From IMG/VR virus record IMGVR_UViG_3300050154_000158: a DNA stretch of 59,347 nucleotides. The stretch is one strand, 5' to 3'. The position numbers and the translations under genes are program-made. Positions 16,028 through 59,347 of the stretch are shown piece by piece. The notes below the pieces were generated by a model, which saw nothing but the letters and a program-made list of their open reading frames with translations, made no database searches and was not told the origin of the DNA. How positions within the stretch are numbered: position 1 is the first letter of the stretch; each line of letters starts with the position of its first letter. This DNA is from a virus.

Positions 16028-16792
16028 CTACAGTTTTTTTGATATCCAGGCTAATTTTACGCGACCAAGAACGCTGAATTTATCTCGTTCGCCATCTTCA
16101 ATAAGGTATGGCTCATATTGTTTATTATCTGAAATCATCAGAATTGAACCATCAGGCCGGCGCTGAAGTCTCTTTATATAAAGCTGATCATTGATGGTTA
16201 GAACATAAACCGCATCGGTAATGACATCCTTGATCCCTGAGTCAACGATCAAAACATCACCATCGTAGAACGTTGGCTGCATACTGTCACCAGAACCAGT
16301 AATCATCGCCAAGTTTGAAGTGTTTGTTATATTTAAATTTCTAGCGACCCAATCTTTTCTAAGAACAATCTCTTCTGCAACAACATCATAATCAGGAACT
16401 ATTGAACCAGGGCCCATTGAGGCAGAAACATCCAACCTTGGAACAGCAACGACTTCTGAATCGACTTTATTTGCCGCCGCCATTGAATTGTTGATTTCAT
16501 GCATAAAGGCAATGTTATCGGTTAATGCCTTATTTATTGCTGGATCAAACGGCATTTGAGTTGGTGCATCAACAAGCAATATCTCGGACTCGCTAACCCC
16601 AAGCGCAGCAGCAATAACAGCTACAGTTGGTCTATCCATGCCATTTCTGCCGGATTCGTAGTTACCAATCCTTGATTGAGACCATCCGCATTTTTCAGCC
16701 AAAAAAGCCTGAGACCAATCCTTAGACTCTCTGATTTCTTTAACTTTTAATCCCATCGCGTACTTAATCGGTCTTTTTTCTGGAGTTTTCAT
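16028..16792 (-). CDS. cI: CI-like repressor: XRE HTH plus LexA/S24 autopeptidase domain
   Basis: HTH (SQAFLAEKCGWSQSRIGNYESG) and C-terminal GSGDSMQPTFYDGDVLIVD...YIKRL (Ser/Lys dyad). Start set at MKTPEKR (alternative 16807). Confidence 0.85.
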   Translation of the reverse strand: MKTPEKRPIKYAMGLKVKEIRESKDWSQAFLAEKCGWSQSRIGNYESGRNGMDRPTVAVIAAALGVSESEILLVDAPTQMPFDPAINKALTDNIAFMHEINNSMAAANKVDSEVVAVPRLDVSASMGPGSIVPDYDVVAEEIVLRKDWVARNLNITNTSNLAMITGSGDSMQPTFYDGDVLIVDSGIKDVITDAVYVLTINDQLYIKRLQRRPDGSILMISDNKQYEPYLIEDGERDKFSVLGRVKLAWISKKL

Positions 16793-16858
16793 CTGACCAC
16801 CAATCATGTTTTTTGGTTTTATACCACATCCTGTGTTAATTAAATTACATGTATCGTG

Positions 16859-16887
16859 TTTACAAACTAACACATATCATGTTTAAT
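16859..16887 (+). promoter_or_regulatory. early-right promoter (pR analog) with overlapping operator
   Basis: TTTACA-N17-TTTAAT. The -10 is embedded in catGTTTAATTAAcgat (16878-16894). An inverted ATGTTTATCT motif lies at 16895-16904, and another TTAATTAA core at 16836-16843. Confidence 0.6.
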
Positions 16888-41663: not shown

Positions 41664-41732
41664 TCAAATCAGAGCCTCAGCAGAAATGCCGGGGCTTTTT
41701 CTTTATCAATTAATCACTATGTGAGACCTAAA

Positions 41733-42254
41733 ATGAATGATCTTATTTTTGAAAATAGCCGATTATCACTAATCGAGTTTAACGGCTCGGTATGGCTTAA
41801 ATCATCCGATATAGCAAAAGCACTCGGATATAAAAACATCGGCAAAATGAGCCGGATTTACAACCTACATAAAGACGAATTTTCAGCATCAATGAGCGTT
41901 GTCATCGAGATGCCCGTTTCGGGCATGTCGAATCTAGTGACAGAAACTAGACTGTTTAGTCTTCGCGGTGCTCATTTGCTTGGCATGTTTGCCAGAACAT
42001 CAAAAGGCGTTGCATTCAGAAAGTGGGTGTTAGATCAGCTCGATAGCATGGAGCAAAAAAACAAAGCAAATCATTCATTGATAGCTGAGTTTTACAGAGT
42101 TAGCGCGGACTTAGAAAGTCAAAATAAATTCGCCAGCATGTGTGGAAAAGGGTTAAGTGAACACAAAAAGAAAAAACCAGCGCTGGTGCAAAAGGTATTT
42201 GATGCAGCAAAAAGAGTACAGCAAGAACTACCACTGATTGCATGGGAGGCTTGA
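41733..42254 (+). CDS. Bro-N domain protein inserted in the tail module
   Basis: The N-terminus LIFENSRLSLIEFNGSVWLKSSDIAKALGYKN fits Bro-N. Confidence 0.65.
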   Translation: MNDLIFENSRLSLIEFNGSVWLKSSDIAKALGYKNIGKMSRIYNLHKDEFSASMSVVIEMPVSGMSNLVTETRLFSLRGAHLLGMFARTSKGVAFRKWVLDQLDSMEQKNKANHSLIAEFYRVSADLESQNKFASMCGKGLSEHKKKKPALVQKVFDAAKRVQQELPLIAWEA

Positions 42255-42255
42255 T

Positions 42256-42627
42256 ATGACCGCATCAGAATACATTGCAAAAATGAACGAATTGATAATT
42301 GAAGGTTATCTTGTCGCTAGCGTAAAAAGATTTGGAGAGCCATCCGCTGTTTACGACAAGGATCACAAGCTTCCTCTATCACTTAGTTTCTTACGTGGGT
42401 TTATGTTGACCGGATTTGTCGAATCCTATGGTGAAGAGCATGCAACACCTGTGATTCATCGCGCCATGCTCCAACCAGAAGTTAAGCGGGGAATGATAAT
42501 TGATGGAAATGACAAGCCAATTCCAGTTTTAACTGATCTTGGGCTGGAGATGATGGACGTTGCGCTAATGGAATATACAGAAAAGCTAATAGAACAAAAA
42601 AGCCCACTCATTCAACCATCTCAATAG
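42256..42627 (+). CDS. hypothetical protein (123 aa)
   Basis: GGAGG RBS. Starts 2 nt after the Bro-N gene stop. Confidence 0.55.
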   Translation: MTASEYIAKMNELIIEGYLVASVKRFGEPSAVYDKDHKLPLSLSFLRGFMLTGFVESYGEEHATPVIHRAMLQPEVKRGMIIDGNDKPIPVLTDLGLEMMDVALMEYTEKLIEQKSPLIQPSQ

Positions 42628-43736: not shown

Positions 43737-44024
43737 TTACAGCCAACTAGCAACACCGCTATGACGAGAGCAGGTACCTCTGTGATGCGTGCTAAAACTG
43801 AACGAACCATCTCGGCATTTCGCTGTAGCGCCAGTAGGGGCTTTGCCTGATTTGGTGTGAGCGGGGCGGTGAACTTCTTTTCCGTCTACATTTGTGTAAC
43901 TGCCTTGCTCAAGCAGTTCATCTGCCTGTTGCTGAGTTTGTGTTGGAGCAGATGGTGGAGTTACTTTTGCAAATACAGGCTGAAATAGTAAAGCTGCCAA
44001 TAAAGCCAATAATGGTAAGCGCAT
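43737..44024 (-). CDS. secreted DUF3761-like protein (95 aa), reverse-strand moron
   Basis: Signal peptide MRLPLLALLAALLFQPVFA. The C-terminus CRDGSFSFSTHHRGTCSRHSGVASWL matches the DUF3761 motif. AAGGA RBS. Confidence 0.65.
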   Translation of the reverse strand: MRLPLLALLAALLFQPVFAKVTPPSAPTQTQQQADELLEQGSYTNVDGKEVHRPAHTKSGKAPTGATAKCRDGSFSFSTHHRGTCSRHSGVASWL

Positions 44025-44089: not shown

Positions 44090-44320
44090 TCAATTACTGC
44101 CGATATATATAACTAGTAACACCAAAAGAACAAATAAAACCGGCGCAAAAACCCACCACATAGCGAATCCGAACAGCATCCATTTAAACAACACGCTTAT
44201 CCAATCAGTTTTCTCTTTTGCGATTGCACCTTTAGGTATGAATTGTTGATTTGGGTATTGCACCCACGATATGCGCCCAGCAAACCATTCTTGGATCCGA
44301 TAACGTAAGGAGTGTTTCAT
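44090..44320 (-). CDS. possible small membrane protein (76 aa)
   Basis: Strongly hydrophobic C-terminal half (FKWMLFGFAMWWVFAPVLFVLLVLLVIYIG). No clear RBS. Its start codon shares bases with the tape-measure ATG. Confidence 0.4.
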   Translation of the reverse strand: MKHSLRYRIQEWFAGRISWVQYPNQQFIPKGAIAKEKTDWISVLFKWMLFGFAMWWVFAPVLFVLLVLLVIYIGSN

Positions 44321-46262
44321 GTCATTCGAGGCCTATAGCGTTGCGATCAAGTTAAGTCTAACAAACCAAGTTAGTTCTGGCCTCGCTTTGCTTGCAAAAG
44401 ATTTAACTGGGCTAGAAAAGAAAGTAGTAAATCTGCAGGACAAGTTTGCAGCGCTGAAAATGATCGGTGTTGGCTGGGGTATGTCAAAGATTGGCTCTGG
44501 CATGCTTGGCTTTCTGGAAAAGTCAGTTGATGTCAGCAAAGAATATACCCACCAAGTATCGCAGATGAATATTCTCGGCATGAAGCAGGCCGACATTGCC
44601 AATGTTATTTCTGCATCATGGAAGACCTCACGTGATGTTATTACGACTAGTGCCGCAGACAATATTGAGGCGTACAGGGAATTGCGTGCTGTATTCGGTT
44701 CGGGCCACGAGCATGAAGCGATTGCAATAATGCCAATTGCTCAGCGTGCCAGCGCGATATTGTCATCATTAACAGGAAAAATGAACACTGTAAAAGATGT
44801 TGGCTATGACATCGCTAAAGCCGCTGAACTAAGCACAAAAGGCGGCATGACAGACGCGCAAATGCAAAAGCGAGCAGAGCAATTCATGCAGGCCTCTATC
44901 GCATTTGGCGGCAAAGTAAATATGCAGGATTTTCATAGCGCTCTTAAAATGACGCGAGGATCCTCGCTTAGCTATAACGACGATTTCATTTCGCATTACT
45001 TGCCAACACTTATTCAAGAGATGAAGAGCGGTAACGGTGGTGGGCAACAAGCTGGCACGCTGTTAAGAAACTTTGATCGAGCGGTTGTTCAGCAAGTAAT
45101 ACCTCTTAATAAGTTGGCTAACTGGGAAGACGCTGGGCTTATAAAAAAAGGTCATGTGGTATGGAATGCGCACCATACAGGTATGAAAAAAATAACGCCT
45201 GGTGGTGTCGAAGGTCAGGATCTGGCAAGCGAAAGCCCGTATGAGTGGTGGCAGAAGTTCGGTGAGCCAGCAGTACAAACACTGATGAAGAAAAATGGAT
45301 TAACTGATATTCAAGCCATCAGCGCCCTATCAACCAACCAAATGACGGCTGATTTGTTCAAGAAGTTTCACTTCCAGCACGCTCAGTTCGAGCGTGATAA
45401 GAAAATGATTGAAGAAGTCACAGCAGGTGGTGGCAGTAAACAAAAATACGATCAACTACTGAAAACTGATCCGCTGCTAGCTCAGCAGGCAATGCATAAG
45501 CAGTGGGAGAATGTTCAGGCCAGAATTGGTTATGAAATTCTGCCAAGACTAATCCCATATATGATCAAGTTTGCAGATGGGTTGGGTAAGGTTGCGCAAT
45601 GGATGCAGGCAAACCCAGAAAAAATGAAATCACTGGTTTTTGGGCTTGCAGGATTGGCGGTTAGTTTCGATGCTATTGGTAAAATTCTTATGGCTGCAGG
45701 TTTCATAAAACTGTTTGGTATAGGAAAGAGTCTAAGTGCTCTTGCCGGAGGTGTAAGCGAAGTTGGCGCTGCAACTGGTGGTGGCGTTGCATCAAGGTTG
45801 TTTAGTGTCGGTAGTGCGCTGAAGTTTATTAACTCAATTGCAGTGGCTTTTATGGCTTGGCAGGCGGGGACCATTGCTGGTGACTGGATAAATAGCAAAC
45901 TAAGCAAAGAAACCAAGGATACGATTGGCGAGTACGTTACAAAAGCTGTTGCGCTGGTTGGGTCTGATGATGCTCTCGATGCTGTTCGTAAGACAGAAGG
46001 TCGTGACAGCTGGTTTATGAGAATGATGGATGCCCGCGGATACCATGAGCAACAACAAAAAACTGCAGCTCCAGTTCCGACATCAAACCAAAAGCCAATT
46101 GAAATTAGAAACTATGTAATGCTGGATGGTAAACAGGTTGCTGAATCAGTAACAAAACACCAAGCCAAGCAGGCGGCAAGACCGCAAACCGGAACAAGTG
46201 CATTTGATAGCTCCATGTTCCCGCCAATGCCTGGCACTAGCAGTTTTCTCATCTCACCGTAA
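44319..46262 (+). CDS. tail tape measure protein
   Basis: 647 aa, helical, with Gly/Ala-rich hydrophobic segments. Lies between the chaperone and baseplate genes. AAGGAG RBS. Confidence 0.75.
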   Translation: MSFEAYSVAIKLSLTNQVSSGLALLAKDLTGLEKKVVNLQDKFAALKMIGVGWGMSKIGSGMLGFLEKSVDVSKEYTHQVSQMNILGMKQADIANVISASWKTSRDVITTSAADNIEAYRELRAVFGSGHEHEAIAIMPIAQRASAILSSLTGKMNTVKDVGYDIAKAAELSTKGGMTDAQMQKRAEQFMQASIAFGGKVNMQDFHSALKMTRGSSLSYNDDFISHYLPTLIQEMKSGNGGGQQAGTLLRNFDRAVVQQVIPLNKLANWEDAGLIKKGHVVWNAHHTGMKKITPGGVEGQDLASESPYEWWQKFGEPAVQTLMKKNGLTDIQAISALSTNQMTADLFKKFHFQHAQFERDKKMIEEVTAGGGSKQKYDQLLKTDPLLAQQAMHKQWENVQARIGYEILPRLIPYMIKFADGLGKVAQWMQANPEKMKSLVFGLAGLAVSFDAIGKILMAAGFIKLFGIGKSLSALAGGVSEVGAATGGGVASRLFSVGSALKFINSIAVAFMAWQAGTIAGDWINSKLSKETKDTIGEYVTKAVALVGSDDALDAVRKTEGRDSWFMRMMDARGYHEQQQKTAAPVPTSNQKPIEIRNYVMLDGKQVAESVTKHQAKQAARPQTGTSAFDSSMFPPMPGTSSFLISP

Positions 46263-46348
46263 ACAAATCACATCAAACATAACCCGCTCCAGTGATGGAC
46301 AAAAGAACAGTATTTGCTAGGTGGTTATAATTTCTTCAAGGAAATACA

Positions 46349-47173
46349 ATGATGATGATTGAAGATGACTTGAACACACAAGGAAAGCAAATGCCTGTTG
46401 CGGTGCCTAAGACGGCAGAGATAAAGCACGCGCTAACCGATGCTATAGACTCAGATACCCCGCTTGGGGAGTTTGAGTTTGCTCGGTTCAAGCGGGATAT
46501 CGAAAGGCTTCCTGAAGGGAATGCTAGGGATTCCATGATGGCATATGCCTTTGCAGCTAATGGTCAAAAAGATAAAGCCATTCAGCAGTTTGAATATGCC
46601 ATTTCAGCACATGGCGATGTCGTGACAATGCATGACTATTGCTTATATTGTAAGAAAATATTCAGAAATGCCTTGGCATATAAGAATGCTATAAAATTTG
46701 CATCGCATATGGATAATCCATTGCTTGTCGCAGACGCATTAACCTTGTCATTCATGTTTTATGATTATGAAACATCAGAATTTTTTAGAAATAAACTTGA
46801 TAAATATCACGTAGAGGGCGGTGCGTTTACCAATGGCGCTTATGCTGAATTCGATGATAAGCGAGACAACCTGAAACGCATGATCCAACAATTTCCGTTT
46901 GATGGCTCACTAATCGCTAAATTGGCAATGGCATTATTCTGTGTAGCAGAAAAGCACTCCCTTCCAATTAATGAAATGCTGTTAATGAAAAATGAAAACA
47001 GGTGTGTGCTTGAGGGGATTGTTGCCTGCAATAAACCAAGCCTTTTGGCAGAAATAAACTTTGACGTATGTATGTGGCTGGCTGAAATCCCAAATCTACT
47101 TGAGTGTGGAATAACCGGGTATTTTATCGCCGCACCCGAAGTTGATGGAGTGGAGTTAATTCATGCCTGTTAA
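46349..47173 (+). CDS. hypothetical protein (274 aa), partner of the HEPN-like gene
   Basis: AT-rich ORF with an AAGGA RBS. A TATAAT hexamer lies at 46326-46331. No nucleotidyltransferase or other motif recognised. Confidence 0.6.
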   Translation: MMMIEDDLNTQGKQMPVAVPKTAEIKHALTDAIDSDTPLGEFEFARFKRDIERLPEGNARDSMMAYAFAANGQKDKAIQQFEYAISAHGDVVTMHDYCLYCKKIFRNALAYKNAIKFASHMDNPLLVADALTLSFMFYDYETSEFFRNKLDKYHVEGGAFTNGAYAEFDDKRDNLKRMIQQFPFDGSLIAKLAMALFCVAEKHSLPINEMLLMKNENRCVLEGIVACNKPSLLAEINFDVCMWLAEIPNLLECGITGYFIAAPEVDGVELIHAC

Positions 47174-47564
47174 CGCGAATGATTTTTTGGATATAGCAAG
47201 CGATGCGCTTTCATTAAATACCGAAATCGGATTCAGAAATGCAATTTCAAGATCGTATTACAGCATGTTTCATCGGGCTAAATCCTCCCTCAGGAATCAC
47301 CCGCAGGATATTCGCTCAGCCCATCAAAAGCTGATCGATTACCTGCTCTCTCCAGAAGCAGCAAGAATGGAGGGGGTAGATGCGGTGGTGTTAAGACAAA
47401 TGGCCTCTTGCTTACATCAGCGGCGTGAGTTGCGGGTTCTTGCTGATTACAATCTTAATTGTGTGATAACCAAGGACACCGCTAAAGAGGGAATTAATAT
47501 GGCCACCTTATTTTTCAAGTATTGCGAATCCATTTACCAAAATAAAAACGCAAATGGTGATTGA
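47163..47564 (+). CDS. HEPN-like domain protein (133 aa)
   Basis: Helix pattern FLDIASDAL..., AISRSYYSMFHRAKSSL, SAHQKLIDYL, LHQRRELRVLADYN...TKDTAKEGI resembles COG2250-type HEPN proteins (YYa.fHa...H..l...R..aDY). Overlaps the upstream gene by 11 nt. Confidence 0.45.
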   Translation: MPVNANDFLDIASDALSLNTEIGFRNAISRSYYSMFHRAKSSLRNHPQDIRSAHQKLIDYLLSPEAARMEGVDAVVLRQMASCLHQRRELRVLADYNLNCVITKDTAKEGINMATLFFKYCESIYQNKNANGD

Positions 47565-47781
47565 TCCAATCTTATCTATGCAAGACCCGCTATGGTTGGA
47601 ATACATGAAATTTACTGGTTTAAGCGAGCAAGCTCTACAGCAAGACTTGGAGCGTGACATCCTGAATACGTCAGACGACTGGGATGATGGCAAGCTTGGT
47701 GCTGATGAACAATTTGTTGTCAAATCCACACACTCTTCAGACGAAGACATTATCGCTGCTACCATCTCAACTCTGCGATGA
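47554..47781 (+). CDS. hypothetical acidic protein (75 aa)
   Basis: Overlaps the HEPN-like gene by 11 nt. No SD sequence. Followed by two terminators. Confidence 0.4.
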   Translation: MVIDPILSMQDPLWLEYMKFTGLSEQALQQDLERDILNTSDDWDDGKLGADEQFVVKSTHSSDEDIIAATISTLR

Positions 47782-47843
47782 GAGTTGAATTAGATTCGCA
47801 GCAAGATCAGAGAAAAATCGCATAGATTTAAATAAAGATAACT

Positions 47844-47866
47844 AACCCGCTTCGGCGGGTTTTTTG
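47844..47866 (+). terminator. Rho-independent terminator
   Basis: AACCCGC-ttcg-GCGGGTT followed by TTTT. Confidence 0.75.
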
Positions 47867-47887
47867 TTTTCTAAATCCCAAATACAC

Positions 47888-47922
47888 GAAAGCCCGAGTT
47901 GTTACCAGCATCTCGGGCTTTC
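47888..47922 (+). terminator. second hairpin (11-bp stem) with weak U tract
   Basis: GAAAGCCCGAG-13 nt-CTCGGGCTTTC followed by tcgtttct. Confidence 0.5.
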
Positions 47923-47997
47923 TCGTTTCTGCACCTTGATGAAGGCAAGGGAGAACTTGTGGTAAATCTTAGCAAGATATTAAAGGAGTTTCGACTA

Positions 47998-48114
47998 ATG
48001 GGTGAAAAATTATCCAACTGGAAGTTCCTGTTGATTTGGCTTCTGGCGCTAGTGGCCTCATCAGCGCCATTTCTGTACGGCGTAGCCAGATTAATAGAGG
48101 CGATAAAGCAATGA
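47998..48114 (+). CDS. 38-aa single-TM peptide
   Basis: AGGAG RBS. MGEKLSNWKFLLIWLLALVASSAPFLYGVARLIEAIKQ. Confidence 0.45.
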   Translation: MGEKLSNWKFLLIWLLALVASSAPFLYGVARLIEAIKQ

Positions 48115-48239
48115 TCGCATCGCTGCTGGAATCATCCCCATGGTTAAGGTTCTGCACTGGCATTGCCATTATTTTGATTGCCCTCGGTGTCGCAGGTTTG
48201 GTGATCACTCCACTAATTCACGCCATTCGTTGGTGGTGA
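48111..48239 (+). CDS. 42-aa single-TM peptide
   Basis: ATGA-coupled to the previous peptide. MIASLLESSPWLRFCTGIAIILIALGVAGLVITPLIHAIRWW. Confidence 0.45.
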   Translation: MIASLLESSPWLRFCTGIAIILIALGVAGLVITPLIHAIRWW

Positions 48240-48255
48240 TCTCAAACACCAAGTT

Positions 48256-48278
48256 AACTCGCTAAATGCGGGTTTTTT
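48256..48278 (+). terminator. Rho-independent terminator
   Basis: AACTCGC-taaat-GCGGGTT followed by TTTT. Confidence 0.65.
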
Positions 48279-48302
48279 ATTGCCTGAAATATGGGGTAAG
48301 CA

Positions 48303-49304
48303 ATGTCACTTCTTAGCATGATTGATACTTATATCGACGGTATTGATGTGACCTCGGTAAAGTTAACGCTTGGCAAATTCACGTTTAAAGATTTCGAGAT
48401 CCCGGCTCACATTGCGTTTCCAGCCAAACAGCAGACGGTTATTCATAAGTTGGTTGGCGGTAAGCGCGTTATTGATGTGTTGGGCGTGGATTATGATCCG
48501 ATCACATGGTCTGGGATTATTACCGGCAAGAAGGCGGGCGACCGAGTTCGAATGCTGGAAACCATGCGTGACACCGGTGCAATTGTGACAATGACGCTGG
48601 ATAGCTACAGCTTTGATGTTGTGGTGACTTCATTTGTGCCGACGTTTGAGTTTATCTACCGCCGCCCGTACACCATTGAGCTGGCAGTAGTTAAGCGCAA
48701 TGACGCACCGGTGCAGGTTGATGCGTTAACAGGTGCATTGAATGCCTTGATCAACAGCGATATTGGTAAGTCGCTTGGCTTGGCCGGCGTCATTAATGTG
48801 TCGTCCATAACCGATGCGGTAACCACGGTACAGGCTGCTGTTGCCAAGATCCAAAGCTTCGCCAGTGCGACATCATCGGCTGTTCAGTCGGTAATGGCGC
48901 CGATTGCCGCGGCTAAATCTATTATTCACTCGGTGATCCGTGAAACCGAACAAGCACTGAATGAAATTACAACGCTGGGCGGCATGGTGCCGGGTAATCC
49001 GGTATCCAAAACCATTAATAACGTGCTCACACAGGCCGATGGATTAACCAGTTTGACGGCGTTGTATAACCTGCACAATACACTTACTCGCACTGAAAAG
49101 AATGTCAGTGCAGGTCAGGCGGCTGATGGTTTGCGCACGGTAACCATTACCGGCGGTACCTTGTATCAGGTGGCCAGCCAGCAATACGGCGACCCAACAC
49201 TGTGGACGAGTATCGCCAGTGCAAACAACCTGACAGATCCGCAACTGACCGGCATCAATACGTTGATCATCCCCGCTAATCCAGCCGGAGATGACTTCGA
49301 ATGA
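48303..49304 (+). CDS. tail/baseplate protein with C-terminal LysM-like segment (Mu gp43 / P2 gpX position)
   Basis: 333 aa. The C-terminus YQVASQQYGDPTLWTSIASANNLTDPQLTGINTLIIP is LysM-like. It is first in a baseplate gene run. Confidence 0.55.
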   Translation: MSLLSMIDTYIDGIDVTSVKLTLGKFTFKDFEIPAHIAFPAKQQTVIHKLVGGKRVIDVLGVDYDPITWSGIITGKKAGDRVRMLETMRDTGAIVTMTLDSYSFDVVVTSFVPTFEFIYRRPYTIELAVVKRNDAPVQVDALTGALNALINSDIGKSLGLAGVINVSSITDAVTTVQAAVAKIQSFASATSSAVQSVMAPIAAAKSIIHSVIRETEQALNEITTLGGMVPGNPVSKTINNVLTQADGLTSLTALYNLHNTLTRTEKNVSAGQAADGLRTVTITGGTLYQVASQQYGDPTLWTSIASANNLTDPQLTGINTLIIPANPAGDDFE

Positions 49305-59220: not shown

Positions 59221-59347
59221 AAAACTGGTTTATAAAGGGGTTGCTACATGCACAACAAATTAAACGACACCGATGTATCTGCTTTAGTTTCAGCTATCGA
59301 CACGATCTGGTTGTTAACGAATTTCATTATCTTATCAATGCCACGGG
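59221..59347. repeat. second copy of the 127-bp end duplication
   Basis: Identical to 1..127. Confidence 0.95.

Follow-up and report, generated by a model that had tools for sequence, protein, structure and literature searches.

The DNA considered here is the IMG/VR virus record IMGVR_UViG_3300050154_000158, a stretch of 59,347 nucleotides which is called the window throughout. Between its tape-measure gene and its baseplate genes it carries a small cassette of three plus-strand open reading frames (ORFs), encoding a 274-aa protein with tetratricopeptide repeat (TPR)-like helices (gene A), a 133-aa HEPN-domain protein (gene B) and an acidic 75-aa protein (gene C). An earlier note, made from the letters of the sequence, had described this arrangement as an AT-rich three-gene cassette and as a candidate non-canonical toxin–antitoxin (TA) or abortive-infection system carried as a moron. 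The three ORFs and the 11-nt overlaps at both junctions (ATGCCTGTTAA at 47163–47173 and ATGGTGATTGA at 47554–47564) are present as described there. The same applies to the location, which is supported by the match of the upstream gene to tape-measure PHROGs and by the homology of the downstream gene to the gene directly 3′ of the tape-measure gene in Ralstonia phage Hyacinthe. The AT-richness is true albeit modest, with GC contents of 0.365–0.448 in the cassette and 0.46–0.52 in the flanks. The unit of three genes, however, had to be revised: the conserved unit consists of the two genes encoding the TPR and the HEPN protein, while the third ORF exists as a lineage-specific orphan within the transcription unit.

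The tail genes of Hyacinthe are syntenic with those of the window, and the Hyacinthe homologues of the two genes flanking the cassette lie only 4 nt apart, showing that the DNA between them in the window is an insertion. It contains the cassette and a second mini-unit of two small hydrophobic ORFs. The TATAAT hexamer reported upstream of gene A is present in the sequence. From the two consecutive terminators that had been proposed downstream, the first one is canonical, with a GC-rich stem of 7 bp, a UUCG loop and a U-run (−15.8 kcal/mol, z = −4.6), whereas the second one is doubtful as a terminator owing to its poor U-tract. The 13-nt loop of this second hairpin (47899–47911, TTGTTACCAGCAT) is exactly reverse-complemented in a variant metagenome contig (L008) in which the arms are unchanged, and this is due either to a genuine inversion of the loop between its repeats or to the assembly. 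Morons, in the sense of Juhala et al. (2000), are lacking from the corresponding junction of a syntenic relative, have their own promoter/terminator and deviate in base composition. The cassette is missing in Hyacinthe, has a low GC content, a −10-like hexamer and a terminator of its own, and its relatives are found at many prophage positions, so that the moron claim is borne out. The features are compiled in Table 1.

Table 1. Positions of the cassette features and of selected genes of the carrier phage in the window.
Feature	Position	Strand	Basis
Insertion of 2.04 kb between the tape-measure gene and the first baseplate (hub) gene	46263–48302	+	Synteny with Hyacinthe; GC dip to 0.37–0.45
Candidate cassette promoter: perfect −10-like hexamer TATAAT; best −35 AGAACA (3/6), spacer 16	46326–46331	+	Sequence read
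Gene A, 274-aa partner protein: eight TPR-like helices, two longer helices, small β-β-α-β C-terminal domain	46349–47173	+	phrog_17809; AlphaFold
Gene B, 133-aa HEPN-domain protein of the AF0298/UPF0332 (HEPN-T) type, predicted RNase effector	47163–47564	+	Pfam, PHROG and PDB matches
Gene C, 75-aa acidic orphan ORF, net charge −11	47554–47781	+	11-nt overlap with the HEPN stop; between the HEPN stop and the conserved terminator
Intrinsic terminator, conserved 3′ boundary of the module, AACCCGC-UUCG-GCGGGUU followed by a U-run	47844–47866	+	Hairpin 47844–47861 (AACCCGCTTCGGCGGGTT), then T-run
Second very stable hairpin with 11-bp arms, doubtful terminator	47888–47922	+	−23.1 kcal/mol, z = −6.2; poor U-tract
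Tape-measure gene	44319–46262		Match to tape-measure PHROGs
First baseplate (hub) gene	48303–49304		Homology to the gene directly 3′ of the tape-measure gene in Hyacinthe
Integrase gene	756–1769	−	
CI-like repressor gene (S24 peptidase domain)	16028–16873	−	

The assignment of the gene B protein to the HEPN proteins, formerly made from the sequence alone, is now supported by profile matches. The Pfam family PF05168 matches residues 4–123 (profile positions 7–116 of 117) with 30.8 bits at a gathering score of 22, phrog_5176 is matched at 2e-30, and the JGI annotation of the protein reads ‘UPF0332 family’. The peptide strings formerly pointed out are found at residues 32–39 (YYSMFHRA), 52–57 (SAHQKL) and 87–97 (RRELRVLADYN). 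Searching the PDB with the single sequence returns the entries 9xbd and 9xbc (‘HEPN domain-containing protein’) as well as 2hsb (AF0298, UPF0332), and a profile of 30 diverse relatives, which are 32–48% identical to the window protein, matches 9xbd at 5e-11 and 2hsb at 1e-7. The AlphaFold model of the protein is all-helical and of low confidence (pLDDT 65, calculated from a two-sequence alignment). With this weak model, Foldseek finds 2hsb as the top match in the PDB (probability 0.99, E = 0.04, TM 0.47–0.49), and other HEPN chains rank lower.

Eleven residues, most of them polar or aromatic, are invariant in the alignment of the 30 members: E21, R25, S29, R30, Y32, Y33, P47, H54, R91, D95, and Y96. 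The canonical HEPN motif Rx4-6H is absent at the aligned position, i.e., at the end of helix 3, where the sequence R91-x3-D95-Y96 is found instead. Two other segments, R30-x6-H37 and R78-x6-H85, fit the regular expression Rx4-6H but map to other parts of the fold, and conservation is lacking for H85. For the AF0298-like HEPN-T proteins it was described that an Asp replaces the His of the motif and that a second, strongly conserved His N-terminal to it may form an alternative active site together with the Arg; this variant, which is common to AbiV, was predicted to be catalytically competent (Anantharaman et al., 2013; PMC3710099). The gene B family shows both hallmarks, with D95 in place of the His and with the invariant H54, which aligns with the corresponding His of 2hsb and 9xbd. 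The ‘R/H/D-Y residues’ proposed as targets for mutation in the earlier note therefore exist, not as a canonical Rx4-6H motif but as the AF0298-type variant made up by R91, D95, and Y96 plus the alternative H54.

The protein encoded by gene A is of a different nature. Its true start is probably the ATG at 46391, which would result in a protein of 260 aa, because Met15 aligns with the N-terminal family signature M-x-x-P-x-x-K-T/S-x-E, because this residue is also where the closest relative (35% identity) begins and because residues 1–19 are disordered in the AlphaFold model (pLDDT <50). This ATG is preceded by its own ribosome-binding site, AAGGAAAG, and the TATAAT hexamer would be located 59 nt upstream of it. 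Gene A matches phrog_17809 at 4.6e-16, while taken alone it has no significant match in Pfam, NCBIfam or PADLOC, with TPR hits remaining below the threshold. A tblastn search of phages with the protein returned nothing and a word-indexed protein search only the protein itself. Relatives were reached by a four-sequence profile and by running phmmer exhaustively over 1.84 billion representative proteins, which yielded 33 of them, all 248–286 aa long except for one of 187 aa. The alignment of 39 family sequences contains not a single column that is invariant or nearly so. The family profile matches designed TPR/PPR proteins in the PDB (1e-14 to 1e-11), and TPR_2 is recognized by Pfam in 15 of the 39 members. 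In the AlphaFold model (pLDDT 77), paired helices span residues 21–151, followed by two long helices (162–202) and a β-β-α-β unit (207–261). Foldseek matches this model to generic TPR folds in the PDB (E ≥ 0.03) and to two uncharacterized phage proteins of the same length in BFVD; neither database provides a functional lead for the C-terminal domain.

HEPN proteins of this type are classically encoded next to a minimal nucleotidyltransferase (MNT), and the absence of a nucleotidyltransferase motif from the large helical partner had been remarked upon before. This stands, as no NTP-transferase family of Pfam is hit by the window protein at E-values up to 1, nor by the 39 family sequences at E-values up to 0.1. 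Gene A as a degenerate MNT was considered and rejected because the motif and the Pfam hit are lacking and the order of secondary structure elements is wrong. The absence of invariant residues, the abundance of TPRs and a divergence faster than that of the HEPN protein, all read from sequence comparison, are in keeping with a role in binding or sensing rather than in catalysis.

The linkage of both genes is strict. A scan of IMG/VR with a degenerate pattern resulted in 203 loci with HEPN relatives, and the neighborhoods of the best 80 of these were read. In 78 of the 80, a gene of the TPR family lies directly upstream on the same strand, and the remaining two are cut by contig ends. In a sample of bacterial genomes with one per species, the TPR gene precedes 19 of the 20 closest HEPN hits; the genera represented by these pairs are Morganella, Yersinia, Yokenella, Serratia, Providencia, Rouxiella, Shewanella, Enterobacter, Leclercia, Proteus, Xenorhabdus, Vibrio, Idiomarina, and Methylocaldum. 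Several Betaproteobacteria likewise carry the TPR gene upstream of the HEPN gene, and one variant of the pair is present in 27 of 5,426 complete Escherichia coli genomes. Only in Yersinia phage YP3 was the HEPN gene found without its partner. The recurrence of the same pair in the same order in hundreds of loci shows that the arrangement is more than chance. Both genes overlap, usually by 4–20 nt among the relatives, and the pair has the layout of a type II-like TA system, i.e., a small, strictly linked operon of two genes with the partner upstream and with translational coupling, as indicated by the 11-nt overlap in the window.

Moreover, the two proteins co-evolve. The loci form at least 30 clusters below 70% identity, in which TPR and HEPN clusters largely coincide, and the distance matrices of both proteins correlate with r = 0.90, a value not reached in any of 2,000 Mantel permutations. 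Divergence is faster in the TPR protein, with a mean p-distance of 0.74 compared to 0.61 for the HEPN protein. More distant HEPN proteins with the same motif have other upstream partners of about 107, 165, 178, and 210 aa, and none of those tested matches a nucleotidyltransferase family of Pfam. Such AF0298-type HEPN proteins with other conserved partners (loci L120–L178) were observed in Roseateles, Alcaligenaceae, Planctomycetota, and others, and one member of the Roseateles group shows a weak similarity (2.7e-5) to the C-terminal domain of the TPR family. A further observation concerns annotation: in E. coli BH100N (NZ_CP025703.1; locus L094, 7761–8156), an intact HEPN ORF of 131 aa lies 3′ of the gene for WP_000718774.1, and the RefSeq feature table of this record lists no coding sequence for the HEPN ORF, indicating that the HEPN family is under-annotated in E. 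coli genomes.

The moron anatomy extends to the family. In a set of 35 family representatives, a terminator-like hairpin lies within 160 nt 3′ of the HEPN gene in 26, compared to 7% of control segments. It usually follows the HEPN stop codon after 16–28 nt and has the form AAACCCGC-loop-GCGGGTTT followed by Ts; in the E. coli locus L094 and in the closest relative of the window pair, L096, it is almost identical to the hairpin of the window. In 43% of the 35 representatives, promoter-like sites are present within 100 nt 5′ of the first gene, compared to 3.5% of random segments, a contrast which is inflated by the AT-rich upstream regions; they often have the form TTGAC[T/G]-17/18-TAnAAT at about 30 nt before the start. 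The GC content of the pair is below that of its own locus in all 35 representatives, on average by 8.3 points.

The genomic positions are highly variable. The pair lies directly upstream of a baseplate spike gene in 33 IMG/VR loci and also in E. coli, after tape-measure or Dit genes in Pantoea and Idiomarina, and between the genes for the portal protein gpQ and the replication protein gpA in P2-like Vibrio phages. The gpQ–gpA interval was shown to be a defence hotspot of P2-like phages (PMC9122126). The pair adjoins the CI repressor gene in Morganella and the integrase gene in Yersinia, in Citrobacter it follows a tail spike gene and an acyltransferase gene at one end of the prophage, and in Klebsiella phage Chronis it is found between replication and lysis genes. 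These scattered positions speak for mobile accessory cargo rather than for a built-in structural gene.

In contrast to genes A and B, gene C is restricted to the closest kin of the window. Homologues were found only in five near-identical metagenome contigs, with a protein cluster of two sequences; none is present in the other loci of the family or was detected by tblastn in phage or plasmid collections, and no family of Pfam, PHROG or NCBIfam is matched beyond noise, the PADLOC search likewise giving a noise-level hit to Cas8a (0.011). A conserved triad of genes was accordingly rejected, since gene C is missing from every other family locus examined. In L096, gene C is absent and the terminator follows 24 nt after the HEPN stop codon, whereas in the window this distance amounts to 280 nt and the gap is filled by gene C, which identifies gene C as an addition inside the transcription unit. 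It lacks a Shine–Dalgarno sequence and would depend on coupling to the termination of HEPN translation. Gene C is probably a real ORF, since an open frame of 75 codons at exactly this place is unlikely to arise by chance according to a rough estimate. An analysis of selection on gene C from the variant contigs was dropped because these differ by two substitutions only.

How does this pair relate to known systems? With AF0298/UPF0332 HEPN-T proteins (PF05168; 2hsb, 9xbd), gene B shares the domain family, the motif SRxYY, the alternative His between helices 2 and 3, the motif R-x3-D-Y and the size of about 130 aa. The context differs, as AF0298-type HEPN-T proteins are encoded in chromosomes of archaea and thermophiles, whereas the family described here resides in prophage morons. 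The partner differs as well: HEPN–MNT pairs encode a minimal nucleotidyltransferase (GSx10DxD, NTP_transf_2), while here a TPR protein of about 250 aa with an additional C-terminal domain and without conserved catalytic residues is found. Given this partner, neutralization by Tyr AMPylation as in HepT/MntA cannot apply. HEPN operons with repeat proteins are on record, namely AbiU2 with a Sel1-repeat gene and LA2681 with a TPR gene (PMC3710099), and these resemble the present pair in combining a HEPN protein with an α-solenoid partner, yet they belong to other HEPN families and both retain Rx4-6H. AbiV shares the alternative-His variant of the active site with the first HEPN-T family (PMC3710099), although the Abi models of PADLOC gave no match to the window HEPN protein (E up to 1) or to the 30 family members (E up to 0.01).

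Prophage-encoded HEPN proteins acting in abortive infection are known from HepS of Gifsy-1 and from Tha of Staphylococcus aureus phages, which are triggered by tail proteins (PMC13043305; PMC11087260), and Tha is accompanied by the dedicated inhibitor Ith that spares the carrier phage (PMC11087260). The likeness lies in the HEPN effector as prophage-borne accessory cargo and in the working model proposed below. HepS and Tha are, however, single proteins with the canonical His (R100–H105 in HepS; H270 in Tha), whereas sensing is assigned here to a separate TPR protein, and no sequence relationship of the window proteins to HepS or Tha was found. As extra units with signals of their own among late genes, the morons HK97 gp15 and JBD26 Tab/anti-Tab are comparable, while their proteins and mechanisms are unrelated to those of the window. 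Such morons confer phage resistance to the lysogen, with a self-protection factor in the case of Tab/anti-Tab (PMC10884400). The DefensePredictor system DS-28, in which a 163-aa HEPN protein with the motif RNSVAH is followed by a 252-aa protein, was rejected as the same system on account of its opposite gene order and its canonical motif, and a comparison of the sequences, made by reading only, revealed no evident resemblance. The pair matches none of the HEPN systems of DefensePredictor that could be checked, and the E. coli partner WP_000718774 is absent from the tables of that paper. A description of the pair was not found in the literature on UPF0332/HEPN, on TPR–HEPN combinations or on the PDB entries 9XBD/9XBC. 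The HEPN half belongs to a known family, and what appears to be new is its pairing with a TPR-type partner other than an MNT, carried as a prophage moron.

Taken together, we favor, with moderate confidence, the reading that the cassette is a prophage moron encoding a TPR-regulated HEPN effector which functions in a TA-like manner or in abortive infection. In the proposed mechanism the moron would be an autonomously transcribed accessory unit in the late tail operon, with a translationally coupled two-gene operon as its core. The gene B protein would act as an effector or toxin with RNase activity, with an alternative active site formed by R91 and H54 and supplemented by D95 and Y96. Synthesized just before it from the same mRNA, the gene A protein would bind the HEPN protein and keep it inactive, taking the place of an MNT. 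A protein of an infecting phage might then be sensed by the TPR groove, upon which the HEPN protein would be released or activated and would cleave RNA, so that the infection is aborted. Gene C, as a lineage-specific add-on of the transcript, may serve to tune the module or to shield the carrier phage from it.

Several observations weigh against this reading. A consensus promoter scan called no promoter at the TATAAT hexamer of the window, the −35 region being weak. Catalysis by the gene B protein would proceed via a site predicted from sequence, as the His of the canonical motif is missing. An interaction of the TPR and the HEPN protein is suggested by linkage, translational coupling and co-evolution, i.e., by genomic data, and Pfam scans detected in gene A no DNA-binding domain in the style of type II antitoxins. 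PADLOC-DB v2.0.0 contains no defence model that matches beyond a weak and partial similarity to HEPN_IX, which is found in 15 of the 30 HEPN members (best 4.2e-5; window protein 1.1e-4 over residues 74–108), and for the TPR protein nothing was found. Finally, a role related to the virion is conceivable, as many copies reside within modules of tail or baseplate genes.

The alternative that fares best is a plain addiction-type TA system, composed of a HEPN toxin and an unstable TPR antitoxin, which stabilizes the prophage or its genomic neighborhood and plays no role in phage defence. It agrees with the gene overlap, in which the partner precedes the toxin as is known from type II TA operons, with the tight co-evolution of both proteins and with the HEPN-T clade being classically composed of toxins paired with MNT antitoxins (PMC3710099). 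We nevertheless regard it as unlikely: post-segregational killing would be of little gain to a prophage that is integrated, the partner contains a large repeat domain suited for ligand binding instead of a DNA-binding domain for autoregulation and diverges faster than the toxin, and one of the insertion sites is the experimentally established defence hotspot of P2-like phages. Many TA systems prove to be defence systems, so that this alternative and the TPR-regulated defence effector are not cleanly separable.

A virion-related or regulatory function, in which a non-catalytic HEPN protein binds RNA or protein and the TPR protein serves as chaperone or adaptor for tail or baseplate assembly or for late expression, appears still less likely. 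TPR proteins are often chaperones, the canonical catalytic His is missing, and the pair precedes the baseplate spike gene in the 33 IMG/VR loci mentioned above, with the copies of E. coli, Pantoea, Idiomarina, and the window also in or next to tail or baseplate modules. However, Hyacinthe manages without the pair at the syntenic position, other copies adjoin genes for the repressor, the integrase, replication protein A, the head protease or lysis, a terminator of its own makes little sense for a built-in late gene, the GC content is foreign in 35 of 35 representatives, and an active site is suggested by the eleven invariant residues, most of which are polar or aromatic. Least probable, and in our judgement very improbable, is a counter-defence or host-takeover function, in which, in the lytic cycle, the HEPN RNase would be directed by the TPR protein as its specificity subunit against host transcripts or host immune RNAs: every locus with neighbors checked lies in a phage or prophage, the pair lies in the late region of many phages and gene C resembles small acidic phage inhibitors by its composition only, but an own promoter and terminator and sites near repressor, integrase and the P2 hotspot are typical of cargo expressed in the lysogen, and we know of no precedent for a HEPN protein with such an anti-defence role.

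Returning to the TPR-regulated HEPN effector, a broader proposal can be put forward more tentatively. The pairs may constitute an undescribed and fairly widespread family of prophage immune systems, in which an alternative-His HEPN RNase has been uncoupled from its ancestral nucleotidyltransferase and came under the control of a fast-diversifying TPR protein acting as sensor of incoming phage proteins and as inhibitor. The HEPN clade might then be a constant effector behind interchangeable upstream partners, with at least four further partner families in Betaproteobacteria, Planctomycetota, and other phyla, the recurrent insertion at the tape-measure/baseplate junction would mark a defence hotspot, and gene C could be a factor for self-immunity or tuning. 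Candidate defence systems are now common, and this pair is compact, cleanly delimited and widespread in prophages of clinically relevant Enterobacterales. If it is a working defence, it would represent a self-contained module of about 1.2 kb in prophages of E. coli, Klebsiella, Enterobacter, Serratia, Morganella, Proteus, Vibrio, and Shewanella, with bearing on the host range in phage therapy. It would also allow an experimental test of the prediction made in 2013 that a HEPN protein without the His of Rx4-6H cuts RNA through an alternative His/Arg site, it would provide an example for the control of a HEPN toxin without AMPylation, and it would draw attention to the tape-measure/baseplate junction of myoviruses as a site worth searching for additional cargo. 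Even if the pair turns out to be an addiction module or to be inactive, it is a well-delimited orphan family (phrog_17809 plus phrog_5176) that can be annotated consistently.

The carrier itself is a temperate myovirus. The ends of the window, 1–127 and 59221–59347, are 100% identical over 127 bases, which shows that it is a circularly assembled, complete genome of about 59.2 kb. Besides the integrase and the CI-like repressor it encodes RecT, DnaB and antirepressors, and this gene content identifies the phage as temperate. With the sheath proteins of Ralstonia phages belonging to the genus Rahariannevirus, its own shares 49% identity. Identical or near-identical copies were found only in metagenome contigs of JGI and Logan. 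When the region was compared by megablast with the phage collection and with the E. coli genomes, the sole match was a stretch of 127 bp outside of the cassette, and all Rfam matches to 46000–48400 at a permissive threshold were below the gathering scores.

The remainder of the insertion and the neighboring tail genes offer some further observations. Positions 47915–48041 are 81–84% identical to unannotated DNA in the endolysin–Rz interval of the Salmonella phages SPN3UB and FSL SP-016. The region 47915–48239 encodes two small hydrophobic peptides, one of 38 aa from an ATG at 47998, preceded by the ribosome-binding site AAGGAG, and one of 42 aa at 48111–48239; together with a terminator-like hairpin 3′ of both ORFs (48256–48274) it forms a second mini-cassette within the same 2.04-kb insertion. 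Further upstream, between the tail-tube gene and the downstream tail genes, two ORFs of 177 and 129 aa (41721–42627; GC about 0.41) have no counterpart in the syntenic Hyacinthe and may be another moron. Just 5′ of the tape-measure gene, the plus-strand tail operon is broken by two minus-strand ORFs (43737–44024 and 44090–44320), of which one encodes a 95-aa protein with a signal-peptide-like N-terminus and a DUF3761 match in the JGI annotation and the other a membrane-like protein of 76 aa; Hyacinthe has one minus-strand ORF at the equivalent spot.

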